64,000 nt of DNA from Candidatus Poribacteria bacterium (GCA_965242965.1 OZ251518.1:320001-384000), one strand, 5' to 3'. Counted from the stretch's first letter, positions 8,517 through 62,565 are shown. The notes: a model not told the origin generated them from the sequence alone. Program-made: numbers and translations.

Positions 8517-10080
8517 AGTTGTTGGAATCGATCTGGGAACAACCTTCTCAGCAATTGCGCATGTCAATGAACACGGACAACCGGAGATTATCCCGAACGC
8601 CGAAACCGAACGGATTACGCCATCGGTAATTCTGTTTGAGGATGATCTCGTCACCGTTGGAAAAATCGCTAAGCAGAACGCGAGAGCCGTGCCGGAACAG
8701 ATTGTGGAGTTCGTCAAACGCGAAATGGGAAAATCCAAAGAGGAGTTCTTCCGAACTTTTGATGGCAAAGACTACTCCGCTGAAGAGCTCTCCGCGCTCA
8801 TTTTGACGAAACTCAAGCAAGATGCCGAGGCGTATCTCGGTGAAGAAATCACCGATGCTGTCATCACCGTGCCAGCCTATTTCCATGACGCGGAAAGGGA
8901 TGCAACGCGCAACGCTGGCACAATCGCCGGGTTAAACGTTTTGCAAGTGCTAAACGAACCGACAGCGGCCGCGCTCGCCTACGGCATCGATCAACTCGGC
9001 AGTAATCAGAACGTCTTCGTGTTCGACCTCGGCGGTGGCACCTTTGACGTAACCATCATGAAAGTCTCCGAATCGGCAATCCAGATGATTGCGACAAACG
9101 GGGACCACCGGCTTGGCGGCAAAGACTGGGACGACAAAATCATCAGGCATGTTGCGGAAAACTTCGATCTTGAGCACGATGAAAACCCGTTGGCTGACCT
9201 GCACGCATATCAAGACCTCCAACTGAACGCCATTGGTGCGAAAGAGTCTTTATCCCAGCGGCAAAAGGCGCGCATTATCTGTGGATACAACGGTAAAACA
9301 TCTCGTGTGGAATTAACGCGCGAAACGTTTAGCGAACTCACCGCGGACCTCCTTGAAAAATGCCGTTCGCTGTGCGATGTAGTCCTCGCGGAGGCCAAGA
9401 TGACGTGGGACCAGATCGACACAGTGCTATTGGTAGGTGGTTCAACCCGCATGCCGATGGTGCGGGAGATGATCTCCGAGATTAGCGGAAAAGAGATTAA
9501 CCCGATGGAAGTCAATCCCGATGAAGCAGTCGCGATTGGCGCGGCCCTTCAGGGAACCCTCCGACAGATTTCCGAAGAATCTGCTGCAGAACTCCCGGAT
9601 GCGGTTGTCGATCGGTTCATCGGCGCAGATGGCGAGGCAAAAGTCACGGTTACCGATGGAGCCACGCATAATCTGGGACTCGTGATTCTTAACGCGCAAG
9701 AAGACGAAGTTGTTCACGTCATGATTCCCAAAATGACTACCGTCCCTTGCGAGAGGGCAAATCAGTTTGGAACCGTGCGTGCCAACCAAAGTTCGGCGTT
9801 AATCCGAGTCGTGCAGGGACTTGGGCAAGACCAACAAGAAACCGATGGCACCATATTTGAAGAACACAAATTGGGTGAGTGTATCCTTGAACTGCCTTCT
9901 GGTTTGCCGCGAGGGGCCCGCATTGACGTTACCTACAAATACAATCTGGACCAGACGCTTGAGGTGACAGCCCAGGGACCCGACGGCAGAGTTGCAAAGG
10001 CGACGATTGAGCGGCGAACGCTTGACGTGGAGGCAGTTGCACAGGCCGCCAAAAATTTGCAAACGCTGGAAGTTGAGTAG
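8509..10080 (+). CDS. Hsp70-family chaperone (DnaK-like paralogue lacking the C-terminal lid)
   Basis: ATG 8509 after GGAGG; GIDLGTTFS, TVPAYF, NEPTAAALAYG, FDLGGGTFD, LVGGSTRMP, NPDEAVA; 523 aa. Confidence 0.92.
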   Translation: MGKVVGIDLGTTFSAIAHVNEHGQPEIIPNAETERITPSVILFEDDLVTVGKIAKQNARAVPEQIVEFVKREMGKSKEEFFRTFDGKDYSAEELSALILTKLKQDAEAYLGEEITDAVITVPAYFHDAERDATRNAGTIAGLNVLQVLNEPTAAALAYGIDQLGSNQNVFVFDLGGGTFDVTIMKVSESAIQMIATNGDHRLGGKDWDDKIIRHVAENFDLEHDENPLADLHAYQDLQLNAIGAKESLSQRQKARIICGYNGKTSRVELTRETFSELTADLLEKCRSLCDVVLAEAKMTWDQIDTVLLVGGSTRMPMVREMISEISGKEINPMEVNPDEAVAIGAALQGTLRQISEESAAELPDAVVDRFIGADGEAKVTVTDGATHNLGLVILNAQEDEVVHVMIPKMTTVPCERANQFGTVRANQSSALIRVVQGLGQDQQETDGTIFEEHKLGECILELPSGLPRGARIDVTYKYNLDQTLEVTAQGPDGRVAKATIERRTLDVEAVAQAAKNLQTLEVE

Positions 10081-10151
10081 GTAACCAGCGATTCTTCGTG
10101 AGAGCGGATTGCTATATCCGCCTATAGATTTCATTGATTAAGGAGTGACGT

Positions 10152-11624
10152 ATGCCCAACCGCGACGCATTCATTGCAATTATCGACACCTTCAAGGCTG
10201 CCTCACCGGCAATTACAAAGGAACAGCGTATCGGCCTCCTCCGGCAAGCGACACAGCAGTACGGCCTGTCCTTTGAGGATGCTGAACAACTGCTGAAATC
10301 TTCCGGCTTAGTCGTCGGCGATGTCGTGAACTACTTTGAGGTGCTGGAACTTTCTATTGAGGAACTCCAGAACCAAACCGAGGCGGAGATAGCAACGCGC
10401 GTCGATACCGCCTACCACAAACTCTATCGCGCGTCATTGATTGCCGGTGTCCGCCCTGGCGAAGCGGAGCGGCGGACTACCCTGAATGAGGCACGGAAGA
10501 TTCTGAAAGACCGCGAGAAGCGGCGCGAACACATCGCAACACTCCAACCTGAAAGAGAATTAACTCCGATGCCTGACGAGAGAATACCCAGGCGCGAGAA
10601 CCCCTCACCTAGAGGCCCGAAAAGCTACTCCGTTGAGCAGAAGTTGGATGCGATTCTTCTTGTTATTGAGAAGGGTTATTCCGGTGCAGATGCCGCGAGA
10701 ACATTGGATCCGCCTGCTACCTCATCCACGGTCAACACTTGGGTTCGTCAGTTCACGGGCAGATACCGTTCAGGAGACCCGATGCCGGCAGACCGGATTC
10801 CTGCTTGGGTTGAGGAAGCGAGACAACTTCACCGGCAGAAATCGGGACAGGGAGATTCCTCCCACAGGGCCTCTGTGCCTCCCGGCATGGTCCTTATCCC
10901 CGCCGGCGATTTTCTGATGGGGAGCTACGATGGAGAAGACGACGAACAGCCGGTGCACACCGTCTATGTTGATGCGTTCTACATGGACACATGCCAAGTG
11001 ACGAATGCACAGTATAAGGTGTTCGTGGATGCAAACCCGCAGTGGCAGCAAGACAACATCCCGGATAAATACCACGATCTAGCAGCCTACCTTGAGCACT
11101 GGAGCGGCAACAGTTATCCGAGTGGGAAAGGCAACCATCCGGTGGTTAATGTGAGTTGGTATGCGGCGATGGCGTATGCGGAGTGGGCCGGCAAACGGCT
11201 GCCGACAGAGGCAGAGTGGGAGAAGGCGGCGCGCGGCGGCTTGGTGGGCAAGGAATACCCGTGGGGCGACACTATTGATACCACCAAGGCAAATTACGAT
11301 CTCAATGTTGGCGATACCACGCCGGTTGGGAGTTATGCCCCGAACGGATATGGTCTGTATGACATGGCAGGAAACGTGTGGGAGTGGTGTATTGATGCAC
11401 ATGATATCTATCCGCTTCCGGCGCGTCGGAATCCAGTGGCGGACTGGGCTGACAACGACTTCGCCCATGTTCAGCCCTACATCTTGCACGTGTTGCGCGG
11501 CGGCTCGTGGTACGGCGACGCGCAAGCACTGCGCGTCGCCGATCGCGGCTTCGATACGCCGGCGTATGCGGCGTATGCGTGCGACGAAGGCGGTTTTCGT
11601 TGTGCGAGGGACATAACGCCTTGA
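10152..11624 (+). CDS. J-like domain + HTH + FGE-sulfatase (SUMF1-like) domain protein
   Basis: NYFEVL...AYHKL...LNEARKILKDREKR (J-like, no HPD); YSVEQKLDAI...TVNTWVRQ (HTH); RLPTEAEWEKAARG, NGYGLYDMAGNVWEW, GFRC (FGE). Confidence 0.8.
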   Translation: MPNRDAFIAIIDTFKAASPAITKEQRIGLLRQATQQYGLSFEDAEQLLKSSGLVVGDVVNYFEVLELSIEELQNQTEAEIATRVDTAYHKLYRASLIAGVRPGEAERRTTLNEARKILKDREKRREHIATLQPERELTPMPDERIPRRENPSPRGPKSYSVEQKLDAILLVIEKGYSGADAARTLDPPATSSTVNTWVRQFTGRYRSGDPMPADRIPAWVEEARQLHRQKSGQGDSSHRASVPPGMVLIPAGDFLMGSYDGEDDEQPVHTVYVDAFYMDTCQVTNAQYKVFVDANPQWQQDNIPDKYHDLAAYLEHWSGNSYPSGKGNHPVVNVSWYAAMAYAEWAGKRLPTEAEWEKAARGGLVGKEYPWGDTIDTTKANYDLNVGDTTPVGSYAPNGYGLYDMAGNVWEWCIDAHDIYPLPARRNPVADWADNDFAHVQPYILHVLRGGSWYGDAQALRVADRGFDTPAYAAYACDEGGFRCARDITP

Positions 11625-11662
11625 ACCTTTATCTCCTTACCTCTTTCGATTTGTTAAACAAT

Positions 11663-11691
11663 TTGACAAACGAGTTTTCTCATGGTATCAT
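11663..11691 (+). promoter_or_regulatory. sigma70-like promoter of the thermonuclease gene
   Basis: TTGACA-17 nt-TATCAT with TG extension. Confidence 0.65.
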
Positions 11692-11831
11692 TTACTGAGA
11701 ACGTTTGCTTGCGTGTCAATTGCGATGGTTCGTGAACGGCCGCAATCGATGCGCGTCACTCGGCCTGTCGCTGCCCAATACGAGGATTCCAATCGTTAGT
11801 TATGAGATGTCTCTGCGAGAGGAGTGAAAAA

Positions 11832-12227
11832 ATGCAACAGTTTGCTCCAACACAAAACTTTGTCGTGACGAAAGTCATTGATGGGGATACGCTGGAAATT
11901 AGTCCTGAAATCCCCCTGCACGTTGCGCTCCAGCCGGCTGTAGAGAAATTAAGGGAAGTGCGTTATGCTGGCACTTCACCGGCATGGATGGTGAGCCCGC
12001 GGCCGCTCAAGCGGGTGCGTTTAGCGCATATAAACACCCCGGAACTCGGCACTCCTCGCGGAGACCGAGCTGCTCTCTATCTGAAGCATCTTTTAGAGGG
12101 AAAACGCGTGACGTTAAGACCCCTCGGTGTTTCCTATGACCGCGTTGTCGCCGACGTATGGCGATATCCCGACAACGTTTCTGTCAATGCAGCGATGCTT
12201 TATAAAGGCTATGCGAAACGCGCGTAG
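11832..12227 (+). CDS. Thermonuclease (SNase-like) family protein
   Basis: VTKVIDGDTL, VRLAHINTPE, YDRVVADV, SVNAAMLYKGYA; AGGAG RBS before ATG 11832. Confidence 0.85.
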   Translation: MQQFAPTQNFVVTKVIDGDTLEISPEIPLHVALQPAVEKLREVRYAGTSPAWMVSPRPLKRVRLAHINTPELGTPRGDRAALYLKHLLEGKRVTLRPLGVSYDRVVADVWRYPDNVSVNAAMLYKGYAKRA

Positions 12228-12309
12228 ACTTCGCTTAACAAAAATGCCGAGCAAATTTGACTTTTTTCTCAAAATAGTGTATCATTTTACCTATGATTGA
12301 TAACTAAGG

Positions 12310-12830
12310 TGAGGGTGTCTCATATCTCGCTCAATGTCGCGGGGACAGGCCCCCGCGCTACGATGAAAAAAACGCGGCCTCTTCACGTAGGGCGAGGGCC
12401 TGTCCCTCGCCATGCTCCGGTCTGCGCAGCAACCATCTGTCGGCTCTGGGCTGCGGACGTTTTCCGCAAAGGTTGAGAGATCGCGGGGGACAGGCCCCCG
12501 CGTTACGATGACAAAAAACGCCTCTCCTTCACGTAGGGCGAGGGCCTGTCCCTCGCCATGCTGCGATCGCGGGGGACAGGCCCCCGCGCTACGGTGAAAA
12601 TAACGCAGCTCTTTCACCGTAGCGCGGGGGCCCTCGGATGCCATACGCGCATCCGAGAGGGTTTCCCTCGCCATGCTGCGATCGCGGGGGACAAGCCCCC
12701 GCGCTACGGGAAAAAACGGCATCCCTTTCACCGTAGGGCGAGGGCCCTCGCAGGTTTCCACACGCCCATGCGTTTGGCTGGCAGACCGCATCACCCCTGT
12801 AGGGCAGGATCGCCCGATCCCAAACTACAG
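12310..12830. repeat. Mosaic REP-like palindrome cluster
   Basis: Repeated GTAGGGCGAGGGCCTGTCCCTCGCC and CGCGGGGGACAGGCCCCCGCGCTAC; begins with TGAGGGTGTCTCATATC. Confidence 0.85.
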
Positions 12831-47954: not shown

Positions 47955-48715
47955 TCGACGGTATCCAAAACGGCCCCGATTATCGTAGCGCGAGGGCCTG
48001 TCCCTCGCGATCGTTCACGGTATCCAAAACGCCCGTTTCACCGTAGCGCGAGGGCCTGTCCCTCGCGAGCGTTCGATGGAACCGAGAACGCCCCGTTTCA
48101 CCGTAGCGCGAGGGCCTGTCCCTCGCGAGCTCTCGATTCTCCCGGGCATGGCGGGGGACAGGCCCCCGCCCTACGGTATTCGGAGCGGCTTTTTTAACCG
48201 TAGCGCGAGGGCCTGTCCCTCGCGATCTCTCGATTATCCCGGGCATGGCGGGGGACAGGCCCCCGCCCTACGGTAAAACGGGCCGCCTCCTTCTGTAGGT
48301 CAAGAGCGCCTGCTCTTGACCTGTTTGCGATCAGGCGATCGCAAACTACAGAGGGGAAACGCGACGGTATCCAAAACGCCACCGATTACCGTAGCGCGAG
48401 TGCCTGTCCCTCGCGAGCGTTCAACGAATCCAAACCGCCCCGATTCCCGTAGCGCGAGGGCCTGTCCCTCGCGAGCTCTCGATTCTCCCGGGCACGGCGG
48501 GGGACAGGCCCCCGCCCTACGGTAATTGAGGGCCGTCTTCTCTTGACCTGTTTGCGATCAGGCGATCGCAAACTACAGAGGGGAGCGCGCACCGTATCCC
48601 GGGCACGGCGGGGGACAGGCCCCCGCCCTACGGTAGAAGCGTGGTTCCTCCTGTAGGTCAAGAGCGCCTGCTCTTGACCCGATGGCGATCAGGCGATCGC
48701 AAACTACAGATGCGG
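47955..48715. repeat. Mosaic REP-like cluster
   Basis: Variants GTAGCGCGAGGGCCTGTCCCTCGCG and GGCGGGGGACAGGCCCCCGCCCTAC. Confidence 0.85.
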
Positions 48716-48725
48716 AGCACGCCCA

Positions 48726-49895
48726 TTAAAACGCCGCCTCCAACAACCCCAACATATCCTCCTCCGTGCAAGAGCGCGGGTTGGATTTATAACAGTGATC
48801 CAACATAGAATCCGCGGCGAGTTTGGGGAGACGTTCGCGAGGCAAACCGCAGGCACCAAGTCCCTCCGGCATCCGTAATTCCTCGTTCAATGCGCGGATT
48901 TCGTCAATAGCGGCGCGCGCAGCGGCTTCCGCAGACATGCCAGCGGTGTTTACGCCTAATGCATCGGCGACATCGGCGTATTTGTCCATCGCAAAGGAGA
49001 AGTTGAATTCCATCACGGGCGGCAACAGAATCGCGTTGGCGACACCGTGGGGTATCGGTGCTTCAGTGGATAACTGATGCGCGATAGAATGGACTGCGCC
49101 GAGTCCCTTCTGAAAAGCGAACGCGCCCATGCTCGCGCCGAGCAACATCTCGGTTCTCGCCGTGACATCGTCGCCGTGATGATACGCCTTTCGGATGTTC
49201 GCGCCGAGCATCTTCAGTGCCTGCAATGCGACACCTTCGGAGATAGGGTGATACCTCGTGGCGACATACGCTTCGATGCCGTGCGTGATGGCATCCATGC
49301 CGGTGGCGGCGGTGAGCGGCATCGGCATGCCTACCGTTAACCCCGGGTCGAGGAGAGAGATGTTTGACATATTTAACGGCGTAACGATGGCGCGTTTTCG
49401 CCATCTATCTGTCGTGTTTCGCGAGGTATCGGTGATAATGGCACCTTGCGAGACCTCGCTGCCGGTGCCAGCTGTCGTCGGGATGCAGATGAGCGGCGGC
49501 ATGTTATCGCGGATGCGTTCCCTCCCGCCGACATCGACGTAGTAAGGCTCCAACGGCGGTTCGTGCGTTGTCAAAATGCGAATGGCTTTCGCTGCGTCCA
49601 TCACACTTCCGCCGCCGATGGCGATGATGACATCGCATGCGGCGCGCTTCCACAACGCCGCCCCTTCTTCCGTGCTGATGTCTGTCGGATTCGGTTCAAT
49701 TTCGGTGTAGTCGGCATAAGGGATGTTGGCATCTTCCAACGGCGCGATGGCTTTCGCGAGGATGCCCGCGCGGCGGACACCGGCATCGCTTACCACCAGC
49801 GGTTTTCGGCCACCGAGGTGCTTGACATGCGCCGCTAGGGATTCAATTGCACCCTCGCCACATTCAATGCGCGGCGGTAAAAAGTAGCTATGCAT
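48726..49895 (-). CDS. Iron-containing alcohol dehydrogenase
   Basis: IGGGSVMDAAK, PTTAGTGSE, GMDAITHGIE, HSIAH, HG.ANA. Confidence 0.92.
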   Translation of the reverse strand: MHSYFLPPRIECGEGAIESLAAHVKHLGGRKPLVVSDAGVRRAGILAKAIAPLEDANIPYADYTEIEPNPTDISTEEGAALWKRAACDVIIAIGGGSVMDAAKAIRILTTHEPPLEPYYVDVGGRERIRDNMPPLICIPTTAGTGSEVSQGAIITDTSRNTTDRWRKRAIVTPLNMSNISLLDPGLTVGMPMPLTAATGMDAITHGIEAYVATRYHPISEGVALQALKMLGANIRKAYHHGDDVTARTEMLLGASMGAFAFQKGLGAVHSIAHQLSTEAPIPHGVANAILLPPVMEFNFSFAMDKYADVADALGVNTAGMSAEAAARAAIDEIRALNEELRMPEGLGACGLPRERLPKLAADSMLDHCYKSNPRSCTEEDMLGLLEAAF

Positions 49896-51834
49896 GCTTC
49901 TCCTGTGCCAGATTTTTCTGGACTTCCTCTACTAAGGCGTTTAAATGCACGTGCCGGAAGAATTCAGACAGGCGTTGCTGTTTGAGTTCTTTCGGGAACA
50001 AAACGAAATTTGCGCACCGGCTTTCGGCGATGGCAAGCACTTCGCGGTATGCCCGGCTCGTTGCGTATCCGACAGCGAAGACGTATCGTTTGCCATATTT
50101 TTGGAGATAGTCGATCAGGCGCGTCGCGCAAAGTTGTATCTGCGCGCTATTCTGGGGAGCGAGTTGGAAATCGTATCGGACGAGTTGTTCCTCTTCCTCG
50201 AACTCTTCGGGGACGGGGCCGTAGAGTCCGGATAGCGTTACCTTGTGAATTCGCTGATGCTTTTCGGGGAACGCCGTTTGCAGTTTTTTCGCCATTAACT
50301 TATGCGTTCGTGAAAGCGAATACGGCTTCTGTCCGGCGCACGGAATAACTAATAGCATCTCCATCTCCGCGGGTGGTTGATAGTCCGCTGGGACGCTGAA
50401 ATCGTCGGGGGTATAGTCTAGTGAGATAGTCGTTTCCGCGTCTTCACGGATGAGCGTGGTTGAATTCTCCGCGGGACCGTAAGGGAAAAGTTCCAATTGA
50501 TTCGGGTTCCGCGCCGCCTTTTCAGCGGCCATCGGCACCTGCACCAAGGTCCGGGTTAGGCGCGTCGCCAATTCAGAGTCTCTCGTGGAGAGCCATTGGA
50601 CTGCATCTCGGATGCTGCGGCCGCGTTGAAACCTTTCGACGTGTCGCGTTAACCCCTCAATTGCATCGTCAGCCTGAATTGCCTCGCGCATATCTGCGAG
50701 GAGTTGCGTCTCCATCTCAAAATTGTGAAGAGAGAGGAGCGCGTAGTATTCGCTTTTAAACTTGCCGGTTGAGGTGGCTTGGTAACTCTTCTCCTCCATA
50801 AACCCCTGCTGCATTTCGTCAAGCGTGATAGATTGGCAGACGTAACATTCGCACGTGAAAGCGTCCATCTCCATAATCTTCAGTTTCTTGAGCGTTTGGG
50901 GATGCGAATAGGCGAGGCTGCGCGAGGCTTGGACGTAAGACGAACTATCAAAAGTGTCCACCCCCATGTAGGCGAGGATGGGTGTCAGGATGCCGGATAC
51001 TCCGAACGCGTGGATGGGGGTATTATCGCGCCGGGCGGCGGGAATTGCCTCGACAACGCCGTTGAGGAGTTCCATGACTGCGGAATCGTTTTTGCCGCGC
51101 AGCGGGACAAGTGAACCGACTGCCAATCCAAAAGAGGGGAGCAATTCGCCGATTTTCTCAAAGACGTTGTCAACGTAACCTTGAATGTCTTTGCCGGATT
51201 GCCCGTGGCAGCAGACATAGAGATAGGGCATATCGGTTTTGCCGCTCAGCCGTTGCGCGACGCGGTGCGCGTTAGCAAAACTCCGCGCCATTCGTTCTTC
51301 TGCTTCGGCGCGCGCCAAGTTCGGGGGGATAGGATAGTCCAACGTCGCGACGATGTCGCCCTCAAAATCGAGTTGTATTTCGAGGATATCGTCAGCCTCT
51401 GTTTCTTTGTGGATGCCGAATTGGGATAAATCTAACCCCGTGTTGTAAAGCAGTTTGAAGCCGCCCGAATCCAAAAAGAGCACGCCTTGGTAATCGCCGT
51501 TCTGTTCGAGGTAATGCTCCCGCATCGACTTTTTCCGCCAATTCGCGAGATATTTCCCGGTGAAGTTGAAGTCGAGAAAGTGCAGGACCTGGGATAGCGT
51601 TGGGGTATCGCGTTGCATGAAGTTGCGGAGGATGTATTTCCAAACCCCGCCGCCGCGCGCGCTCGTGCCGGTGAGGAAATTGATGACAGGGTAGAGAATC
51701 GGTGTTTCCAATTTTCGGTTTGCCGTGCGAAATTGCAATTCGCCGATGCGTCCGTGTTCCGTGGCGGTGACGGTGCGGAAGATAGTGGGCGTGCTGTCGG
51801 TTTTTGTATCGCGGGCGTTTTCGTGTGTGTGCAT
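49888..51834 (-). CDS. tRNA-guanine transglycosylase-like protein fused to an ArcS/DUF5591-like domain
   Basis: LDSGGF, LDYP, IHAFG, GVDTFDSSSY, CECYVC...H zinc site; C-terminal LVIPC..QKPYS.SRTH...LSGLYGPVPEE. Confidence 0.8.
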   Translation of the reverse strand: MHTHENARDTKTDSTPTIFRTVTATEHGRIGELQFRTANRKLETPILYPVINFLTGTSARGGGVWKYILRNFMQRDTPTLSQVLHFLDFNFTGKYLANWRKKSMREHYLEQNGDYQGVLFLDSGGFKLLYNTGLDLSQFGIHKETEADDILEIQLDFEGDIVATLDYPIPPNLARAEAEERMARSFANAHRVAQRLSGKTDMPYLYVCCHGQSGKDIQGYVDNVFEKIGELLPSFGLAVGSLVPLRGKNDSAVMELLNGVVEAIPAARRDNTPIHAFGVSGILTPILAYMGVDTFDSSSYVQASRSLAYSHPQTLKKLKIMEMDAFTCECYVCQSITLDEMQQGFMEEKSYQATSTGKFKSEYYALLSLHNFEMETQLLADMREAIQADDAIEGLTRHVERFQRGRSIRDAVQWLSTRDSELATRLTRTLVQVPMAAEKAARNPNQLELFPYGPAENSTTLIREDAETTISLDYTPDDFSVPADYQPPAEMEMLLVIPCAGQKPYSLSRTHKLMAKKLQTAFPEKHQRIHKVTLSGLYGPVPEEFEEEEQLVRYDFQLAPQNSAQIQLCATRLIDYLQKYGKRYVFAVGYATSRAYREVLAIAESRCANFVLFPKELKQQRLSEFFRHVHLNALVEEVQKNLAQEKHA

Positions 51835-51909
51835 AAGTTGTTTTTGGTTCCTGTCTGTCGAGGGTTATAGATTATTAATATGATACCACAAACGCGAATT
51901 TCGTGCAAA

Positions 51910-52500
51910 GAAAAAAACGCCTCGCTTTCATCGTAGGCGGCGAAAATCCCCCTTTCACCGTAGGGCGAGGGCCTGTCCCTCGCCATGCCTCGGTCTACCG
52001 AACGTTCGCGGGGGACAGGCCCCCGCGCTACGGAAAAAAACGCCTCCCTGTCACCGTAGGGCGAGGGCCTGTCCCTCGCCATGCCTCGGTCTACCGAACG
52101 ATCGCGGGGGCCTGTCCCCCGCGCTACGGTAAAAAACGGTCCTTGAGGCTCTGTAGGTCAGGATCGCCTGATCCTGACCTGTTTGTGATCAGGCGATCAC
52201 AAACTACAGATGGGGAAACACACATCGGGACGATGAGATCGCGGGGGACAGGCCCCCGCACTACGATAAAAAAACGCCTTCCCTTCACGTAGGGCGAGGG
52301 CCTGTCCCTCGCCATGCCTCGGTCTACCGAACGATCGCGGGGGACAGGCCCCCGCACTACGATAAAAAAACGGGGCTTGAGCCATCGCGGGGGACAGGCC
52401 CCCGCGCTACGGGAACATCGAGACCGGGAGGTCTCGCCTACCGGAAATTGAGCCCCGAGGTCTCGCCTACCGGACACATCGGAATTATGAAAACCCTCAG
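51910..52500. repeat. Mosaic REP-like cluster flanked by 36 bp direct repeats
   Basis: GTAG hairpins; flanks 51874-51909 and 52501-52536 match at 34/36 positions. Confidence 0.85.
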
Positions 52501-52527
52501 ATTAATATGATACCACAAACGCAAATT

Positions 52528-55500
52528 TCATGCAAATTTGATAAACGCCGCGCTGCAAATGACCTTGGGAGGGACACGGACGGACTGAATAGGTGGCACC
52601 TCGTCGCTTGCCAACGCCGACATATTGTAGCGGTGATAGAGGGTTTTCAACGCCGTTAACAACTCTTCGCCCGTGAGTTCGGCGCGATAGAGGCGGCTGA
52701 TTTCGCGTTTGAGACGTTCTGTTAAGCGGCCGCGGAACGCTCGTTCAAGCGTCCCTATCGCGCGCTCTTCCGAGGTGCTGGCCAGCATCCTTAACTCCCG
52801 CAAAATGTATCGTTGCGCGCGGGACAACGTCTGTTTTGGAAAGGCGTTTCGCGTCCGACAGACTTCCGCTGCAGACGCTTTTTGGACTTGGGTGACGCGG
52901 GCGTTGTGATGGGCCGGAAGCGGTTTGCCTTGCAATTCGGCATCGCACTGGAGCAAGCGAAGGATTTCGGCAACATCGGTAGTCCGTTCAACGCCGTTTT
53001 CATCAAGCAGGACAAGCCGTCTTTGCTGTTCCTGTTCCCCGCGACAGCAGACGTAAGTGCCTTCTACTTCGGCGGGGATGCCGGTGCGAATGCCATCTCT
53101 TAACTCGGCGATGCGCTGATATTCCGCTGGGTTTTGCCGTCTCAATTGCCGCAGCAACTCTTCCGCCTCACTTAATCCGAAGCCCGGTTCTTCGGTTTCT
53201 TCTTCCAAGAGGCTGAGTTGTTCGCCGTTCTGTTCATAAATGGCATACATCGCTTTTTCGTTGAGTTGCTCGGTGTTGTCAAGGATTGCCGCGTCTTCAC
53301 CGATGGTATCGTGGATTTCCTGAATGCGGCATTGGAGTTTCTCGCGTAGCCCGAGGTTGCGTTCAATTCCCAATTCCGGCAGGAAATTGAACCCGTGGAT
53401 TTCGTCAAATTGACTGCCAATCCTATCAATGCGGCCGAAGCGTTGGATTAAGCGCACCGGATTCCAGTGTAAATCGTAGTTGATGAGCATGCCGCAATCT
53501 TGCAGGTTCAATCCCTCGGCGAGGACATCTGTGGCGATGAGCGTCTCTATCTCGGTTTCATCCGACTTCAAGCGATGTTGATTGGCGTTCGGTGCGAACC
53601 GCTCGACGACGCGCCGCTTCCTATCGCTGCCGTGGCTATGGATAACCTCCGTATTCGCTGTGTGCAGGTTTCGGTAGAGATAGTTTGCAGTATCAATATA
53701 TTGTGTGAAGATGAGCCGTTTTTTGCCCTGCAGCGATGGCGATGCCAGCAACGCTTTCAACTTCTGAAGTTTCGCATCCTGCGCAGGCGTGATATGCTGA
53801 ACCTTCTCGAAGATCTGGTTTAGAATACCGATGTCGTTCTGAATCGCCGCGCGAAGTTCAGGGACGTTGAAGTCACGGATGTCGTATTGCGCGGAGGCTT
53901 CGCGGCGTGCTTCCAGAAACTGTGCAATGTCCCGTTCTTCCGGGCTGATGTCGGTTTCATCAGAAGTGCTCGCTTCATAGAGGATTTTCTGGGCATCGTC
54001 ACCGGCTGGCACGATCCCATTTTCAAGCGCGCGGAGGAAATCGACGTGGACGTTATAGAACCGGGAGATAGTTGTCTTGAAGGCGTAAACACTGGATTCA
54101 AACCGTTTGAAGAGCAGAATACGCATGAGGCCCCGCAGGTTTCTACCCGCGCTCTGCAAATCCTGATACGGCGGGACATTCTGACTCTCCTCCTTCACAT
54201 AGTGCCAGAGGCCATACCGTGCATAAGTCAACTGCGCAGCGGTATCCGATTTACCGAGGTAATCGCGAATCTGTGCATAGAGCCCCTGATAGGTATCTTC
54301 AATGCTGTATTCAACCGTCTTGAGGGTGCGCTTCGGAAAGAACTGCTTGGTATCGCCGACGCGGACATAGGCGCGGCGTTCGCGGTTCAGGTAATCGGTG
54401 AATTGCGTTGCATCTACGGGTTCATCTGTCTCGGCATCGTAACCGTACCAACGCAAGATGTGGTTTCGCGTTCGGCGGATGAGAATGTGTTGTAAAAGCG
54501 TCGGGAGGCTCCGTTCCCCGTTCTCAATCAAGCGGAAGTATTCGCGAAGATTTGGCGCGTCCACCGGCAACTGCGTTTCGTCGTTGAGATGGAAAAGTTT
54601 GAGTTGGTGGTAGATATCCCACGCGCTTTTATTGCGCGGTGTCGCTGTGAGGAAGCAGCACTTCTTATCGCCTGTTGTGAGGAATTCCTGCAAGACGCGG
54701 TAGCGTTGCGTAGTGGCATTTCGGAAGTTGTGGCTTTCGTCAACGAGGACAAAATCGCAGTGTCGATAGCGAATATCTTCAAAGAGCAATTCCCGCGCGT
54801 TTTCTTCCCCGCTACTTAAAAGCCCGGTGGAGAGGATTTGCGCGCCGAGGCGGTAGAGGACGTTATAGGATTCCCACATGGACATAAGCGCGGGGGGACA
54901 GAGGATGAGCGGACGCGCCTGTTCAACTTGTTCAAAGTGCTTGACAATCGCCGAACCGATGTAACTTTTGCCGAGCCCGACGACATCGGAGATGAAGACA
55001 CCGCCGTATGCGTCAATAATCCGAATGGCTTGGGAAACGGCTACCTGCTGAAAATCCGCGAGTTGCGCTGTCAATTCGTCTGCCGGTGCGATGCGGCTCT
55101 CATCCGTTTCTACCCTATCTTTTACCAATTCGTAGAGCGTCTTCATGTAGATGTCATAAGGACGAACAAGCGCGAGGGCCCAGGAGGTTTGCATCTCGTC
55201 CATCAACGCCTTGTCAAAATCCTCTGCTTCGTCCCATAACGCGTCAAACCAGTCGCGGAGTTGCACCTGATTGGCGTTGCCGTGCACGACGACGTTCAAT
55301 TCGGTGTTGCTGGTTAACCCTGCCAAGGTAAGATTCGATGAGCCGACGATGGAGATGCCGGATTCATATCCCGCGTTTTTGCCATAATCGAAAATATACG
55401 CCTTGGCGTGGAAACGCTCCTTCGTGTAAACCCTGACTTTCAGTTGTCCGCTAGCAATCATCTCCACGAGAGTTTTGATGAGTTGCGCCGAGTCATCTGT

Positions 55501-55839
55501 CTGCGGCATGAATTCCATGCAGGCGCGGAGGTTTTGCGCTGTGTCACCGACGCGTGCCTTGCGTTCAACGCCGCGTGAATAGCGGCGCGCCGACTGAATC
55601 TCGCCTACAGATGCCAATTGTCGATATCCTTCGGCGAGCTGCTCAATCGTCTCGCGTGTACTCGTATTCCCGATGAGGAGACGGAGCTCGGTGACGTTTT
55701 GCAGTGCTTCCGCGATGCCGGTAAAGCCGGTGAGGAAAAAATATCCGACAGCGAAGCGGGCGCGCTCTGTCTCCTCTAACATGAGAGTGACGTTGTCGAT
55801 GAGTTTTTCGGTGCGATTGTCGATAATGTCTTGTGGCAT
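52528..55839 (-). CDS. PLD-like nuclease + SF2 (SNF2-like) helicase
   Basis: FHAKAYIF...GSSNLT...ELN (PLD); DVVGLGKS, VDESH, TATP, EGLNLQ, WNPVRLIQRFGRIDR. Confidence 0.9.
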   Translation of the reverse strand: MPQDIIDNRTEKLIDNVTLMLEETERARFAVGYFFLTGFTGIAEALQNVTELRLLIGNTSTRETIEQLAEGYRQLASVGEIQSARRYSRGVERKARVGDTAQNLRACMEFMPQTDDSAQLIKTLVEMIASGQLKVRVYTKERFHAKAYIFDYGKNAGYESGISIVGSSNLTLAGLTSNTELNVVVHGNANQVQLRDWFDALWDEAEDFDKALMDEMQTSWALALVRPYDIYMKTLYELVKDRVETDESRIAPADELTAQLADFQQVAVSQAIRIIDAYGGVFISDVVGLGKSYIGSAIVKHFEQVEQARPLILCPPALMSMWESYNVLYRLGAQILSTGLLSSGEENARELLFEDIRYRHCDFVLVDESHNFRNATTQRYRVLQEFLTTGDKKCCFLTATPRNKSAWDIYHQLKLFHLNDETQLPVDAPNLREYFRLIENGERSLPTLLQHILIRRTRNHILRWYGYDAETDEPVDATQFTDYLNRERRAYVRVGDTKQFFPKRTLKTVEYSIEDTYQGLYAQIRDYLGKSDTAAQLTYARYGLWHYVKEESQNVPPYQDLQSAGRNLRGLMRILLFKRFESSVYAFKTTISRFYNVHVDFLRALENGIVPAGDDAQKILYEASTSDETDISPEERDIAQFLEARREASAQYDIRDFNVPELRAAIQNDIGILNQIFEKVQHITPAQDAKLQKLKALLASPSLQGKKRLIFTQYIDTANYLYRNLHTANTEVIHSHGSDRKRRVVERFAPNANQHRLKSDETEIETLIATDVLAEGLNLQDCGMLINYDLHWNPVRLIQRFGRIDRIGSQFDEIHGFNFLPELGIERNLGLREKLQCRIQEIHDTIGEDAAILDNTEQLNEKAMYAIYEQNGEQLSLLEEETEEPGFGLSEAEELLRQLRRQNPAEYQRIAELRDGIRTGIPAEVEGTYVCCRGEQEQQRRLVLLDENGVERTTDVAEILRLLQCDAELQGKPLPAHHNARVTQVQKASAAEVCRTRNAFPKQTLSRAQRYILRELRMLASTSEERAIGTLERAFRGRLTERLKREISRLYRAELTGEELLTALKTLYHRYNMSALASDEVPPIQSVRVPPKVICSAAFIKFA

Positions 55840-55849: not shown

Positions 55850-57978
55850 TTATTTCAGGAGCTCTAATAGTGCATTTATACCTTTTACGCCGAGCACAGA
55901 CAAAACTGTTGCAAAAGCGATGCTGACAATTCCGCCAAGGACGATCTTCCAGGGAGTCAGCGCGCCCTTCAATGCCTCAACGGATTTTTCAGTGTTCACC
56001 AACTTTTCGTTCATATTGTCTAGTTGCACATCCCGTTTTGCGTCGCGTTCGGCACTAGCGGCGAGATGAGCTTCTGTCTTGGCTTGGAATTTCCCAATCT
56101 GCCGGAGGGACTCGTCAATGCTGCCTAAGCGTGCATCGCGTGCAGTGTCGCGTTCCGCACTGGCGGCGAGGAGTGCTTCTGTCTTGGCTTGGAATTCGCC
56201 AATCTGCCGGAGGGATTCGTCAATGCTGCCTAAGCGTGCATCGCGTGCAGTGTCGCGTTCCGCACCGGCGTTGAGGAGTGCTTCTGTCTTGGCTTGGAAT
56301 TTCCCAATCTGCCGGAGGGATTCGTCAATGTTGCCTAAGCGTGCATCGCGTGCAGTGTCGCGTTCCGCACCGGCGTTGAGGAGTGCCTCTGTTTTCGCCT
56401 GGAATTTCGCGATGTCATCTAAGCGCGCGTCCCGTTCGGCATCGCGCGCTGCACTGGCATTGAGGAGTGCCTCTGTTTTCGCTTGGAATTCCCCAATCTG
56501 TTGGAATAACTCCCCGAGGTGTTCCAAGCGTGCATCGTGTGCAGCGTCGCGTTCCGCACCGGCGTTGAGGAGTGCCTCTGTTTTCGCTTGGAATTTCGCG
56601 ATGTCGTCTAAGCGTGCATCCCATTCCGCGCCGCGTTCTGCACTAGCGGTGAGGAGTGCCTCTGTCTTCGTTTGGAATTCGCCAATCTGTTGGAACAACC
56701 CCTCAAGGTGTTTCAAACGTGCATCGCGCTCGGTATCGCGTTCGGCACTGGCGGTGAGGAGTGCTTCTGTCTTGGCTTGGAATTCGCCAATCTGCCGGAG
56801 GGACTCGTCAATGCGGACGAAGTGTGCATCGCGTTCGGCATCGCGTTCGGCACTGGCGGCGAGATGGGCCTCTGTCTTGGCTTGGAATTTCGCGATGTCC
56901 TCTAAGCGTGCATCCCATTCCGCGCCGCGTGCTGCACTAGCGTTGAGGAGTGCCTCGGTCTTGGTTTGGAATTCGCCAATCTGTTGGAACAACCCCTCAA
57001 GGTGTTTCAAACGGGCATCGCGCTCGGTATCGCGTTCGGCACTGGCGTGAGGAGTGCTTCTGTCTTTGCTTGGAATTCCCCAATCTGCCGGAGGGACTCG
57101 TCAATGCGACCGAAGTGTGCATCGCGTGCAGCCTCGCGTTCTGCACTCGCGGCGAGATGGGCCTCTGTTTTCGCTTGGAATTTCGCGATGTCATCTAAGC
57201 GTGCATCCCATTCCGCGCCGCGTGCTGCACTAGCGTTGAGGAGTGCCTCTGTCTTGGCTTGGAATTTCGCGATGTCATCTAAGCGTGCATCCCGTGCAGC
57301 GTCGCGTTCGGCACTGGCGTTGAGGAGTGCCTCGGTCCTGGTTTGGAATTCCCCAATCTGTTGGAACAACCCCTCAAGGTGTTCCACTCGGGCATCGCGT
57401 TCGGTGTCGCGCGCTGCACTGGCGGCGAGATGGGCCTCTGTCTTCACTTGGAATTCTCCGATTTGGCGGAGGGACTCGTCAATGCGACCGAAGTGTGCAT
57501 CGCGTTCGGTGTCGCGCGCTGCACTGGCGTTGAGGAGTGCCTCAGTCTTGGTTTGAAATTCGCCAATCTGTTGGAACAACCCCTCAAGGTGTTCCACTCG
57601 GGCATCGCGTTCGGTGTCGCGCGCTGCACTAGCGGTGAGATGAGCCTCTGTCTGCTCTTGAAACGCCGCTATCCGCTTGAACAATTCCTCAAGACTATCT
57701 AACCGCGTATCGCGTTTGGCATCTAATGCCTCAACTGCAGTCAATCGTGCATGCGTTTGGGTCTGGAGTTCTACAACGCGTTGGAGCAATTCCTCAGTGC
57801 CGTCCAGTCGTGCGTCGCGCGCTGCGTCGCGCTCAGCACTGGCAACGAGATACGCATCTCTTTTGACATCCAGTTCAGCACTACGTTCTTGTATCTTCTC
57901 GATCCTCTCCAACCGAGGAATGCTTTCGTGACGTGCCGGCTCCGAAGCATTTTTAGGTTGATTATCGGTAGTTTTCAT
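55850..57978 (-). pseudogene. Frameshifted coiled-coil tandem-repeat protein with C-terminal TM anchor
   Basis: Two ORFs (57007..57978, 55850..57010) with the same 28/35 aa repeats; one base missing near 57046 (GGCGTGAGG versus GGCGGTGAGG in the sister repeat); AGGAG RBS at the 5' end. Confidence 0.75.
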
Positions 57979-58538: not shown

Positions 58539-58847
58539 TTACAATCGATGCACCGCGACGAACTCCGGCGTGGCTCCCTCTTCCCAAACGGCAGACGTCC
58601 GCCGGTCTTTTTTGCCAACACCGAAAATAACGAATACGTCAGGGGCAACCGAACGCCTGTTTTCGGGGGTGCCGTAATAGATGAGCAAATTTCCGGACAC
58701 ATACACATCGGGCGCGTGCCGGAAGTGGTGCTCCAACGTCTGAATAAGGGACATCATTACTCTTCGGTGTTTATCGGTTTCTGCCATAGGTTTTCCATCT
58801 GATTCGGGTAGGGTGAGTGTCGGCGCAGAGCGTATTTGTTGCAACAT
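58539..58847 (-). pseudogene. Uma2-family endonuclease, 3'-truncated
   Basis: PESDGKPMAETDKH, YVSGNLLIYY, VAPDVFV; ends at PEFV, before the expected catalytic Glu. Confidence 0.75.
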
Positions 58848-58955: not shown

Positions 58956-61900
58956 TCAACTCCGCGCCTTCTTAAGCCTAGTTTCAACGAGATTGATAAC
59001 CGCCTCGTAAACGCCATCACGCTCGCCTTGCGTCAATTCCAAGATGTCAAAGATGACGTTGTCAATCGCGATGCGCGCCGGTGAAGGCGATAAAACGTCC
59101 CATTCTTCGGATGCGAGGAGGGATGCATTTACCCCCCCCCTCAAAATTCATGTCTGTTAAGTTAGGGTTAACACATCGTAGCTCTCCCAAATCCGAGGTT
59201 TGGAGTTCTAACTCCCCATATCCTAGGTTTGAGCGACCGTTCACGTTCACCATCAACTGGAAGAAAGTAGAATTGAGGGAGAAACAGAGAGGTATCCTCA
59301 ACTCAAGTGCGCATTGGAGTTCCATAAACTTGCCAGTCACATAACACCCCTCACTGGCATACAATGTTTTTGCCGTTGAACGCATCCGGTGCGCAAAACT
59401 CATATACGGAGGCGGGCGTTTGCCCACATCATACCATCGCCGTCTAGATCGGATGCTCGGCCGCTGAGGCAGTTTCTGGCTTTCACCCGATTCAATGTAT
59501 GCCAACGCAGCGGTGCCTCTTAAGGCTTCTCTCTCCTTTTGACACAGAAAGAGTTGATGTGGTGATTGTTCGGGGCGAATCAACAGGCTCTCAGTGACTC
59601 TCCTGTCGTTGACAATCGGGTGTAAAAACTCTGGCTCAATATGCCACGCCGAAATCGTCTCCGCATCAAGGATGAAAAACTGGTTTGCCCCGCTCATGAT
59701 TCCTCGCCGAATCTGAGCGATGTCGCCGACACGGACGAGTTTATCCGAGCCTTTTTCTAGTAATGTCCAATAGATGTCGGGAGCGCGCAGATACTTCGCG
59801 CCCCATTTGTTTCCGGTATACTTCGTCTTTGCATCCATTCCGGCGGCTAAAAGTGCATCCTGCGAGAGAAGGTGAATTCGATATTCAGGCAGAGCATTCC
59901 GCTGGATTTCGGTTTCGATTTCGTAAAAGATGACAGGATCCAAAATAGCCTCAAACGGTTCGGTAAAGTTAACAAACCGCACAATGTCTTGCAAACCTGA
60001 TGCGCTATCTCTAACCGGGGCGGAGATGAGACAAATAGCAGTGTTGATATTTACGGCTTTGAAGGAACGTCGTGCCGCGTTGTCCAAAACCAGTTTGAGA
60101 TGACACCGCTTAAGGAGGAATTCCTGCAAATCTTTGCCGAAGTCCGCATCTAACCACGATCTGGATGTGATAGTGCAGAAGGTTCCTTTGGGATTTAGCA
60201 ACGAGAGTCCGTGAAAGTAGAAGTAGACGTAGAGATCGCTGTTGCCATCTAGTTTATGCTTCACGGCAGACGCGGGGTTTTCCTTCGTATCCTTCTCCGG
60301 TTGATACCCGAAGAATGCAGGGAACGCCTGATAAACGGAACGCGCCAACTTGGCTTTATACGCCTTCGTGTTAGCGGGTGTAACCGCGTCTCGGGCTAGC
60401 GTCGGGTCTGTGAGTTTTTTCGTTGAAACGTAAGGCGGGTTTTCTATCACGATGTCAAAACCACCATACTGTTTGAAAATCTCAACGAAGGCAATGTCCC
60501 ACACGAAAGGTGGAACTGCATCTGACGTAAGGGCATGCTGGGCACGTTGGAGGTTGTTGAGATTCGCCTGTTGAAGTGCCAACTCCTGTTGCTTTTGCCG
60601 AGTTGCAAGATCTAATTGCGCTGCCTGGGGTTTCTCAATCCCGTCAAGCGTCAGTTGTTCAGCCGGATCTTCAAGCCATTCCTGTAAACCTGCAATGCCT
60701 TCCAAAATTTGGCTTTCCTGCGACTGCAGTGTCTCCCGAAAGAGCAAGTTCTCGGCGCGTTGCACATCCGCTTTCTCACGATATTTCCGCTCACGTTCGT
60801 TGTGATAAAACTTCAGTTTCTCTGTCTGGTGGAATACGATTTTGCGCGAGATGTCAGTCGGCACGCCGCTGCCCAACGCGCGCGTCTGCGCGAGGTTCAT
60901 CCCACCGATGTCCTGCACCAGACTATCGCCGTGACGAATGTTAAACGAAAAATCAGGCAGCAAGGGCTCCTCGCGAATCTGCAGTTCCGCGGTGGAAATC
61001 TCTGCCTCAATGATGAGCGCGAGCCAGAGGCGTAACTCGGCAACTTTGCATGCCCACGGCATCACGTCTACGCCGTAGAGATTCTTGCCGATAATCGCCT
61101 TGCGGCGTTCAAACCTTGAGGTAACAGATGCACCGAGGTGCCGTGCGGCGCGTTCCCCCAGGTCATCGAGAATATGGAGCATGCCGACGAGAAACGAACC
61201 GCTGCCACACGCCGGATCCAACACCGTGAGACGGTTCAGATGCGTCGCGATATCACCCCACTGCGCGGCGAGGTGGGCATCGGCATCTTCCTTCTCTGTT
61301 TCATCGAACGTAAAGAGTGCGGCGTAAAATTGATGCTTATGCGCCTCACCGATGTGATTTGCGAGGTTATCTACGAGCGCGAGACGGCACATCATATCTA
61401 TCTCGATGCGCGGCGTGTAGAAGATGCCGGCATCGCCGCGTTCATCGGTTTCAGCGGAGACACTGACGAGACTCTCGTAGACTTTGCCGATCATCTCGGG
61501 GTCTACGGCGACTTCCTGTTCCAGCGGGGTATCCTCGGCGATGGTGAAGTTATATCCCTCGAAGAACTGGAAGATGTCGCGCCATAAATCATCGGGAATC
61601 GTGGTGGCATACTCGGTATCCCATTCGTTTTCTCGGAATAAGCCGCCGTTGAGATAGGGCGCGTGCTGAAGCGTTTCGCGGATGTTGTCAGGAAAGTAAC
61701 GATATCCGCCGTGAAACTTCTGATTGAAAGCGGCGAAGAAGAGGACGTTGAGCCACTTTGCCACGAAGGTATCCGCTGGTTGCGTTGCGTTTTGATACGC
61801 CTGCCAAAACGTGTGCAGGAAATCGGTGTCGTTTCCGAGCCACCGTTTTCGCTGGATGAAATAGAGGAAGAGGCAGCGGCTGAGGAATTGTTGGGCTGCA

Positions 61901-62565
61901 TCGTGCGCCCACTTTTTATCAGCGGTTTGCGTTTCCAACTCGGTTTGGAGGTTTCTGAAGACGCGCTGATAGTCGGCGAAAAACTGCGCTGTCACGGCAT
62001 CGACATCGAAGGCGGCATCGTGCTGTTTGGTAATTTGCAGAGGTGTCAGCAGCTCTGGATTTGGGAAGAGGCTCTCCTGTTGGCCGTCAATGGCTATCGT
62101 CGCCAGATCGAGCATTGCGATACGTTCGGCGGCGGTGCGGAGTTTTTCATCGGGCGCGACAGTGATGCGCCGGAATCGGTGGCGTGCCTTGTGTTTCTTG
62201 CTTGCCTCGCGGACGAGTGTGACGTTGACGAAGTGCCAGTGGTCTTGCGCAATATTGCTAAAGATGTAGAGCGCGTGCGGGAAGCGCGTCTGCAAGTGCG
62301 CGATGACGCGGCGTTCGGCGGTCTTGCGGGGTGTTTCGGTATTGAGGCGCGCGTATATGATGTGAAAGTCGTTATCCCTACCCCCGGCGGCAAAGCGTCG
62401 CGGTGCCTCGGCGAGGCAGTCGGCGATGGCTTCCGGGATGTTCTCAATCGGTTCATCGATGCGGTGATAATTGAGTTCTACCCAAAAGAGTTCGCGCAGG
62501 GGTTCGATGCCGCGGAGGTTTTGTAGCAGAGTTAAGATGCGTTCGGTGTTTTCGGGTGTTGGCAT
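58956..62565 (-). CDS. Large N6-adenine DNA methyltransferase (Eco57I/type IIG-like), frameshifted at a G9 tract near the 3' end
   Basis: PYLNGGLF, VDPEMIGKVYE, FYTPR, DPACGSGSFL, GFDIVIENPPY; a C-terminus-like segment (IFDILELTQGERDGVYEAV) lies in a second frame (58956..59144). Confidence 0.85.

Follow-up and report, generated by a model that had tools for sequence, protein, structure and literature searches.

The 64,000-nucleotide stretch of a Candidatus Poribacteria bacterium genome analysed here (GCA_965242965.1 OZ251518.1:320001-384000; hereafter the window) carries on its minus strand, at positions 49888..51834, the gene for a TGT-DUF5591 fusion protein, P0001. The gene is one open reading frame (ORF) with an ATG start and codes for 648 amino acids (aa), with an amino terminal tRNA-guanine transglycosylase (TGT) domain and a carboxyl terminal DUF5591 domain of the type found in archaeosine synthase ArcS. 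P0001 is almost certainly a real enzyme and a member of a distinct TGT-DUF5591 family.

The TGT catalytic domain, a predicted TIM-barrel for base exchange, covers residues 28-395 (50650..51753, minus strand). It was delimited by its Pfam match (TGT, E 1.1e-21, 77.8 bits versus a cut-off of 26.3), by invariant alignment columns, by alignment to the archaeal TGT (arcTGT) structure 1iq8 and by Foldseek. The DUF5591 or ArcS C1-type domain (residues 484-605; 50020..50385, minus strand) is defined by its Pfam match (E 5.8e-13, 49.4 bits versus a cut-off of 26) and features the motifs PC-X3-KPY-X2-S-X2-H and SGLYGPVP; a profile scan of the host genome located it at window positions 50017-50385. Between them lies a disordered linker (residues 431-466; 50437..50544, minus strand) where the predicted local distance difference test score (pLDDT) is below 50 and the alignment columns are gappy and variable. 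The Pfam scan of P0001 revealed no third family, and neither TGT_C2 (C2) nor a PUA domain. The AlphaFold2 model of the protein, built from a 29-sequence alignment, has a mean pLDDT of 87.8 and a predicted template modelling score (pTM) of 0.86, and shows two folded domains and the disordered linker. The folded carboxyl terminal domain extends past the DUF5591 match to residue ~647 and ends with a helix that follows the C1-type domain; residues 470-648 modelled separately reach a pLDDT of 90.

The family alignment comprises 29 full-length members, each 30-67% identical to P0001. Its invariant positions are D122-S123-G125 (LDSGGF), D166 (LDYP), D296 (FDS), C328, C330, C333 and H370-N371 in the TGT part, and K503-P504-Y505, G539, P542 and R597 in the carboxyl terminal part. 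The exception is the Cys of the PC motif, which is not invariant among these 29 sequences. When 32 carboxyl terminal domains were aligned, C, K, P, Y and S were invariant together with the SG..GPVP stretch. In the HMMER alignment to the arcTGT of P. horikoshii (1iq8), D122/D166/D296 fall on D95/D130/D249 and C328/C330/C333/H370 on C279/C281/C284/H307, which we take to be the catalytic (Asp pair, substrate Asp) and the zinc residues of arcTGT, respectively. P0001 also matches exactly the ArcS C1 motif, PC-X3-KPY-X2-S-X2-H in the accessible text of PMC10516641. Judged from these conserved residues, both domains look active and under strong constraint. An earlier reading of this DNA, made from the sequence alone (the sequence-only reading), had pointed to intact TGT Asp motifs (DSGGF, LD, FDS) and a zinc site, which proved present and invariant in the 29-sequence alignment. 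It had also noted a carboxyl terminal domain resembling DUF5591 of ArcS, a likeness borne out by the Pfam score of 49.4 bits, the exact C1 motif and the matches to AF0587 (2q07).

Profile scores were used as a proxy for the placement of P0001 relative to named arcTGT, ArcS and DpdA sequences. In NCBIfam, the protein passes the superfamily model TIGR00449 tgt_general (80.1 bits versus a cut-off of 47.6). It fails the equivalog models of TgtA (TIGR00432, its top NCBIfam score, 92 bits versus 350) and ArcS (NF040592, 80.7 bits versus 440), as well as the models of thermoproteal ArcS (NF053620, 36.2 bits versus 600) and of bacterial queuine/preQ1 Tgt (TIGR00430, 44.5 bits versus 306.75). Ten relatives from other lineages likewise stay below the cut-offs, with 39-116 bits for TgtA and 45-108 bits for ArcS. 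PADLOC returns only its generic 'TGT' model for P0001 (E 0.001). When the family profile was run against Protein Data Bank (PDB) sequences, it scored 119.7 bits with arcTGT 1iq8 (E 1.3e-33), 50.7 bits with AF0587, 39-50 bits with bacterial and eukaryotic TGT and 20.5 bits with DpdA 7ui4 (E 1.3e-3). The top Foldseek matches of the whole model are arcTGT 1iq8 (E 9.5e-21) and 1j2b. For the carboxyl terminal domain, AF0587 (2q07) is the sole significant Foldseek match (E 9e-5), and similarity to it in sequence reaches E 1e-12 with the family profile and 1.5e-10 in a second search. The amino terminal domain is archaeal-type, because arcTGT outscores bacterial TGT and DpdA and Foldseek ranks arcTGT first, and by the same kinds of scores the carboxyl terminal domain is a true ArcS-C1 relative. 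The divergence from bacterial queuine Tgt asserted in the sequence-only reading is seen both in the NCBIfam scores (92 bits for TgtA, 44.5 bits for bacterial Tgt) and in the top rank of arcTGT 1iq8.

The closest solved relative of the amino terminal domain is thus arcTGT/TgtA (1iq8), whose Asp residues and Cys3-His zinc site align one-to-one with those of P0001. The two differ in that P0001 is devoid of C2 and PUA, has an ArcS-type catalytic domain at the C1 position and is found in a bacterial host. ArcS alpha and its split form AF0587 (2q07) share with P0001 a TGT-like amino terminal domain followed by a C1 domain with PC-X3-KPY-X2-S-X2-H, but P0001 again has neither C2 nor PUA, and its TGT domain keeps the residues aligned with the catalytic Asp pair of arcTGT. 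A further relationship was detected with hhalign, which aligned the carboxyl terminal domains with 20 DUF6884 proteins (probability 86%, E 4.8e-6), placing PCSxxKPY on SCSxTK and LSGLYGP on LSAKHGL. The accessible text of PMC11701544 describes DUF6884 as carrying CxxxK and LSAxxG motifs and as related to DNA-binding YaaA, and PADLOC models tie DUF6884 proteins to DpdC. By hhalign, the carboxyl terminal domain is predicted to be homologous to DUF6884/DpdC-like proteins.

Distribution of the family and genome background

Clustering indicates that TGT-DUF5591 proteins are a distinct fusion family, with 99 clusters at E<=1e-30. The search of cluster representatives retrieved 570 clusters at E<=0.001 and 184 at E<=1e-10, and full-length matches among these representatives reach down to ~28-30% identity. 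Among the matches listed in a word-index search (120 proteins, 55-97% identity), all have TGT and DUF5591 and bear only generic Joint Genome Institute (JGI) names. The two nearest clusters of the Atlas, both with TGT and DUF5591, have 59 members (68% bacterial, Chloroflexota commonest) and 123 members (49% bacterial, Methanobacteriota commonest). A phage origin was rejected, as no relative was present in 50,697 phage records and IMG/VR gave two weak TGT-only matches. In a quick IQ-TREE tree (LG+G4, with Shimodaira-Hasegawa-like approximate likelihood ratio test, SH-aLRT; 84 of 108 rows kept, 24 near-duplicates dropped), the Poribacteria form one clade with a support of 100. Nearest to it are the loci L060-L062 with three long-branch representatives, followed by a group of L064/L066/L069/L070, and a haloarchaeal clade stands on the other side; the deep branching order is unsure because several long branches meet.

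Within Poribacteria, the fusion gene is found in 54/176 genomes, in 44/133 of the high-quality genomes and in 15/31 genera, with 0/40, 12/65 and 16/20 genomes in three individual genera. Identity to P0001 is 87-92% in the genus, 64-71% in the family, 55-61% in the order and 49% in the class, a fall with kinship that fits mostly vertical descent combined with frequent loss. Some poribacterial genomes carry two copies. In 11 genomes of genus g15, a second and divergent site (L055 and its counterparts) matches in split form; it codes for a ~618-aa protein with a different linker, and 3 of these 11 genomes (e.g. G055) also hold the main copy. Composition gave no clear sign of a foreign insertion (GC 0.50-0.62 across 43-64 kb). 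The sequencing runs containing the stretch include sponge metagenomes; no RNA run is among the 21 runs listed.

The host genome has three TGT-type genes: a canonical Tgt (G000:C1:3644375-3645469; 532.6 bits on PF01702), the fusion gene and a third TGT-like gene. The fusion gene holds the only DUF5591 of this genome, and among 14 control genomes DUF5591 occurs only in 3 archaea. QueC, QueE, tandem QueD-like 6-pyruvoyl-tetrahydropterin synthase (PTPS) proteins and QueF are encoded at scattered places elsewhere on the same contig; therefore, both 7-cyano-7-deazaguanine (preQ0) and 7-aminomethyl-7-deazaguanine (preQ1) can be made. The sequence-only reading was right that the window has no que genes and no dpdBCD (neither DpdB nor DpdC-K is present there), and the queCDE genes and canonical tgt that it left to be sought elsewhere in the genome were all found (QueC, QueD-like, QueE and canonical Tgt). 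The canonical Tgt is separate from P0001, whose carboxyl terminal domain does resemble DUF5591/ArcS, the two points on which that reading had staked its case.

Gene neighbourhoods

The gene of an Fe-dependent alcohol dehydrogenase (Fe-ADH; 48726..49895, minus strand; Pfam, NCBIfam) follows the fusion gene in the window. On the other side are found a PLD (phospholipase D, HKD) and Snf2-type helicase of 1103 aa (52528..55839, minus strand; Pfam; PADLOC 'HKD+Snf2', E 1.8e-83), two repeat ORFs of 386 and 323 aa with 28/35-aa coiled-coil-like repeats (55850..57978, minus strand) and an Eco57I/type IIG-like N6-adenine methyltransferase (MTase) of 1167 aa (59062..62565, minus strand; Pfam; PADLOC REase_MTase_IIG, E 1e-50), of which a 71% identical copy exists in the sister genome G066. 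The PLD-helicase and MTase neighbours are on the same strand as the fusion gene, as the sequence-only reading had described. A promoter-like site, TTTGCA-18-TATCAT with TG (51880..51909, minus strand), is a candidate from a consensus scan (a pattern match) and is positioned 46 nt upstream of the TGT start codon, with a second copy at 52507-52536; it is carried by a 36-nt direct repeat, D5 (51874-51909 and 52501-52536). The gap between helicase and TGT genes is 693 nt in the window, where it holds an array of repetitive extragenic palindromic (REP)-like elements bounded by D5, versus 66 nt in G066. This upstream array looks like an insertion bounded by the 36-nt duplication.

Poribacterial neighbourhoods were compared over 22 loci (20 loci of ~20 kb, the window and L005). 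Of these, only the window, G066 and G065 (3/22 loci, one genus) have the PLD-Snf2 helicase, repeat protein and MTase beside the TGT gene. The 'defence-like locus' of the sequence-only reading is consequently no conserved partner, and a conserved operon with the PLD-helicase/MTase locus is ruled out because that locus is genus-specific. The 8-nt overlap with the Fe-ADH gene, reported in the same reading, is real; this synteny is limited to one taxonomic family, f1 (10/21 loci), which rules out a family-wide functional link to Fe-ADH. In families f2 and f3 an N6_N4 (type II) DNA MTase lies directly upstream on the same strand in 7/10 loci. Three of these 7 have a MutH-like nuclease between the MTase and the TGT gene, and the gap to the TGT gene is ~65-110 nt. 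At one further poribacterial locus the position directly upstream is taken by a divergent Uma2 'putative restriction endonuclease'. Restriction-type genes are found upstream in three unrelated forms in Poribacteria.

More distant relatives (30-45% identity) reside in 7-deazaguanine islands. ORFs were clustered for the 60 metagenome loci with a length of 6 kb or more (c6, c9, c10 and c18 are cluster labels), 45 of which encode acidic (haloarchaeal-type) proteins (D+E 0.16-0.20), with Dpd-like neighbours at 44/45. Over the 60 loci the neighbours are a GHKL ATPase (40), a DUF6884/DpdC-like protein (36), a DpdJ/YprA-like helicase (24), QueC (17), QueE (16), QueD (17), a 975-aa NTPase-like protein (17) and a DpdK-like PLD (12). 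The DUF6884 protein of the islands also matches the DpdC and PDC-M57A models, and most acidic loci code for a second TGT of ~414 aa. In a plasmid search (tblastn), full-length relatives were found only on haloarchaeal megaplasmids; a Haladaptatus plasmid has the gene set of the acidic islands, its relative being annotated merely as 'tRNA-guanine transglycosylase'.

The acidic islands fit, by gene content, the description of BRIGADE, which in the accessible text of the preprint of Bell et al. 2025 (PMC12458937) features a 7-deazaguanine biosynthetic cluster, YprA-like helicases and PLD and is found 'exclusively in halophilic archaea'. Family members at ~33% identity to P0001 are components of such islands. 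The difference is that the linked YprA-like helicase, PLD/PD-(D/E)xK nuclease and deazaguanine cluster accompany distant relatives only and are not present in the window, and that the other BRIGADE genes are missing from the host genome. The main text of PMC12458937, as far as accessible, holds no mention of a TGT or ArcS-type gene; its supplement may show one.

Thirteen loci are non-acidic, and 8/13 of them are also defence-like; they are not independent and amount to about five defence-type arrangements versus one or two otherwise, with the neighbours of L066 left unannotated. L069 codes for QueD and a YprA-like helicase, L072 and L073 for a YprA-like helicase, c6, c18 and a second longer paralogue (with QueC in L072 only), L124, L130 and L131 for c18 and c6, and L070 for a DUF1998/MZB protein, a large helicase and a UvrD-like helicase; these seven contigs carry Dpd/BRIGADE-like islands. 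In L064 a tight operon (198-12811) with 4-nt overlaps begins with a Vut_1-family transporter, presumably of the YhhQ/COG1738 preQ0 transporter family, followed by TGT-DUF5591, a PglZ-like phosphodiesterase-domain protein (936 aa), a 304-aa protein, an AAA protein (251 aa), a 1334-aa protein and a HerA-like ATPase. The HerA-like and PglZ-like set recurs beside the fusion gene in the haloarchaeal loci L076, L085, L088, L106 and L125. Homologue neighbourhoods, which the sequence-only reading had named as a check, place distant members in queCDE-bearing Dpd-like/BRIGADE islands; the cassette of the window itself is not conserved.

Predicted activity and competing explanations

According to the accessible text of PMC11298593, ArcS turns preQ0 in tRNA into the archaeosine base (G+) or preQ0-Lys, and the smallest substrates on which it can act are the nucleoside and nucleotide of preQ0. 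Its partner in most Euryarchaea is RaSEA. ArcS2 of Vibrio phage nt-1 is a C1-only ArcS homologue which, together with DpdA2, converts deoxy-preQ0 (dPreQ0) to deoxyarchaeosine (dG+) in DNA, as described in the accessible text of PMC10516641. ArcS2 and DpdA of this phage are the closest functional analogy to P0001, but they are two separate proteins whose TGT is DpdA, whereas P0001 is one chain with an arcTGT-like TGT. The bacterial Dpd system (DpdA/B/C and DpdD-K) also combines a TGT paralogue with a nitrile-modifying enzyme, and the islands of the relatives have DpdJ-like helicases and DpdK-like PLD. It differs in that P0001 gives no DpdA match and that the window codes for neither DpdB nor DpdC-K.

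P0001 quite probably handles a 7-deazaguanine in a nucleic acid. In our judgement there is an even chance that it is a single-chain enzyme that works on DNA, both inserting preQ0 and tailoring the nitrile of this base. Its arcTGT-like amino terminal domain would swap guanine in a polynucleotide for preQ0 supplied by the QueC/D/E proteins of the cell. The carboxyl terminal ArcS-C1-type domain would then attack the nitrile of preQ0 to yield a base of the amidine type, which would either resemble archaeosine or be an adduct with an amino acid (preQ0-lysine, for example). DNA would be the likeliest substrate, the protein uniting DpdA and ArcS2/DpdC in one chain. This reading is favoured because of the constrained domains, the available preQ0, the 7-deazaguanine islands and the precedent of a C1-only ArcS2 that works on DNA with a TGT paralogue, alongside which the absence from P0001 of a C2/PUA RNA-binding domain, the three restriction-type forms upstream in Poribacteria and the hhalign relationship to DUF6884/DpdC-like proteins are also counted. 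As distant relatives are found in DNA-modification defence islands, P0001 probably produces an unreported modified guanine in a nucleic acid, most likely DNA. The base-exchange plus tailoring enzyme of the sequence-only reading therefore stands as the best fit to the conserved residues of both domains, its conserved local defence partner does not. It is a more tentative proposal that this one polypeptide writes an archaeosine-type amidine or amino-acid adduct into genomic DNA, is repeatedly combined with unrelated restriction modules and acts as a mostly orphan, chromosomally encoded hypermodification enzyme in Poribacteria. The modules involved might, with equal reserve, be the YprA/PLD of BRIGADE, the PglZ/HerA-type set and, in Poribacteria, PLD-Snf2 or type II restriction-modification.

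Several observations weigh against the DNA-directed inserter and tailor. P0001 has no DpdA match at E<=0.01 (NCBIfam NF041059, PADLOC DpdA models), and by profile scores its TGT domain is much closer to tRNA-acting arcTGT than to DpdA. The PUA domain is said, in the title of one study, to be dispensable in arcTGT; a tRNA substrate is therefore compatible with its lack. The poribacterial data fit a chromosomal, mostly vertically inherited accessory gene without a fixed restriction partner. Only metabolic or housekeeping neighbours (GNAT, ComEC, PhyH, GFO/IDH/MocA etc.) are present at the other 11/22 poribacterial loci, the closest non-poribacterial loci (L060-L063) have an ABC transporter, sigma-70 and Lon as neighbours, and tblastn of the host genome found no YprA-, c6-, c18-, c9- or c10-like gene. 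In the haloarchaeal islands, the separate small TGT, ATPase and DUF6884 protein could modify DNA alone, independently of the fusion protein. The metagenome loci come from a scan by one carboxyl terminal peptide pattern (best 80 of 142 confirmed loci) in which hypersaline sites dominate. A YaaA-like fold of the carboxyl terminal domain was considered and rejected, since Foldseek found AF0587 only and no YaaA. DUF6884 is present in 93/176 poribacterial genomes versus 54/176 for TGT-DUF5591, and in 22/40 genomes of the genus where the fusion gene is found in 0/40. Finally, the literature found contains no biochemistry for any TGT-DUF5591 family member. A search on DUF5591, DpdA/ArcS fusions, ArcS2, archaeal dpd and archaeosine synthase found no description of a TGT-DUF5591 fusion; the supplements of PMC12458937 and PMC10516641 may list it.

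A rather unlikely alternative is that P0001 modifies tRNA, as a bacterial arcTGT and ArcS in one chain that makes an archaeosine-type base in tRNA or other RNA of Poribacteria. tRNA, and even preQ0 nucleosides, are established substrates for the chemistry of ArcS (PMC11298593, accessible text). Both in sequence (119.7 bits) and in fold (Foldseek E 9.5e-21) the best match is the tRNA-acting arcTGT, and TgtA gives the top NCBIfam score, yet the TgtA (92 versus 350 bits) and ArcS (81 versus 440 bits) cut-offs are missed widely and the C2 and PUA domains are absent. Identity tracks taxonomy in a housekeeping-like manner and non-defence neighbours are found at 11/22 poribacterial loci, but the gene is patchy (54/176 genomes; 0/40 in one genus and 12/65 in another) and its relatives are in restriction-type islands and not near translation genes. 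Furthermore, we know of no archaeosine-type base in bacterial tRNA. For the genus of the window, the enzyme may instead be the modification arm of the adjacent MTase/repeat/PLD-Snf2 locus, in a new modification-dependent or modification-protected restriction system, which we regard as unlikely. In favour of this, the genes of the cassette share one strand with the TGT gene, the stop codon of the helicase lies just 66 nt from the TGT start codon in G066, and the 693-nt gap of the window would be due to the REP-like insertion bounded by the 36-nt duplication. The helicase is also recognised by a PADLOC candidate-defence model (E 1.8e-83), and the family is elsewhere repeatedly paired with different restriction modules. 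Against it, the cassette adjoins the gene only in 3/22 poribacterial loci from a single genus and includes an MTase already, a candidate promoter-like site precedes the TGT gene itself, and the TGT/Fe-ADH pair, common to family f1, is older than the cassette.

It is highly improbable that P0001 writes no mark on the nucleic acids of its own cell and serves as an eraser or glycosylase-like defence against 7-deazaguanines of invading DNA, or in salvage or tailoring of free bases and nucleotides. TGT chemistry is a reversible base exchange, and the writer could be the separate TGT, ATPase and DUF6884 set of haloarchaea. Glycosylases that target 7-deazaguanine-modified phages exist (accessible text of bioRxiv 10.1101/2025.10.29.685425) and ArcS takes preQ0 nucleoside and nucleotide (PMC11298593, accessible text). 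The strict conservation of a nitrile-tailoring C1 motif fused to TGT argues for two-step synthesis and not for removal, and the queCDE genes or preQ0-type transporter beside relatives point to a supply for insertion.

A conserved fusion of arcTGT-like and ArcS-C1 domains would be a second route to 7-deazaguanine DNA marks, in one gene. To our knowledge, these marks have so far been linked to DpdA-type enzymes whose tailoring partners are separate proteins. The occurrences of the fusion span BRIGADE-type islands of haloarchaea, further defence islands in bacteria and, as a solo gene, ~30% of Poribacteria. If the reading as a DNA-directed inserter and tailor is correct, an amidine or lysine adduct in DNA would be a new natural DNA base; on the more tentative proposal of an orphan writer in Poribacteria, a 7-deazaguanine base so far unreported would be present in the chromosomes of bacteria that live in sponges. 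The enzyme would also provide a compact tool for site-specific hypermodification of DNA or RNA and explain the uncharacterised 'tRNA-guanine transglycosylase' genes of these islands. Should tRNA be the substrate, an archaeosine-type pathway would be seen in bacteria for the first time.

Further observations in the window and host genome

The two repeat ORFs at 55850-57978 consist of 84/105-nt tandem repeats (28/35 aa) rich in Ala, Arg, Asp and Glu, and correspond to one 814-aa gene in G066; the gene is here either split by a frameshift in the repeats or mis-assembled. A 102-aa ORF (58539-58847, minus strand), positioned between the MTase and repeat genes, is probably a gene remnant; it falls in one cluster with a Uma2 'putative restriction endonuclease' of 271 aa that is encoded beside TGT-DUF5591 in L047, a locus of a different poribacterial genus. 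Arrays of ~93-97-nt palindromic REP-like elements, at 47956-48730 and 51945-52420, fill both intergenic regions around the TGT/Fe-ADH pair.

The third TGT-like gene of the host genome codes for 400 aa with a weak DpdA match (E 7.8e-5). It is the last gene of a tightly packed five-gene operon on the minus strand (G000:C1 ~2241829-2246612; L144:9330-14113) that also codes for a BrxD/BrxC-like AAA ATPase and three proteins without Pfam or PADLOC family. This operon is possibly a further candidate for a TGT-based defence or modification system.

Co-occurrence of DUF6884 with TGT-DUF5591 gave no clear link across the phylum, DUF6884 being common in the genus without the fusion gene. In genus g6 it is found in 10/12 carriers versus 28/53 non-carriers of TGT-DUF5591, counts in which kin are not independent. 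Poribacterial genomes often have several DUF6884 copies, sometimes inside open frames of ~590 aa, and the host genome codes for a DUF6884/DpdC-like protein of 254 aa at G000:C1:3895630-3896394 (L145:9431-10195).

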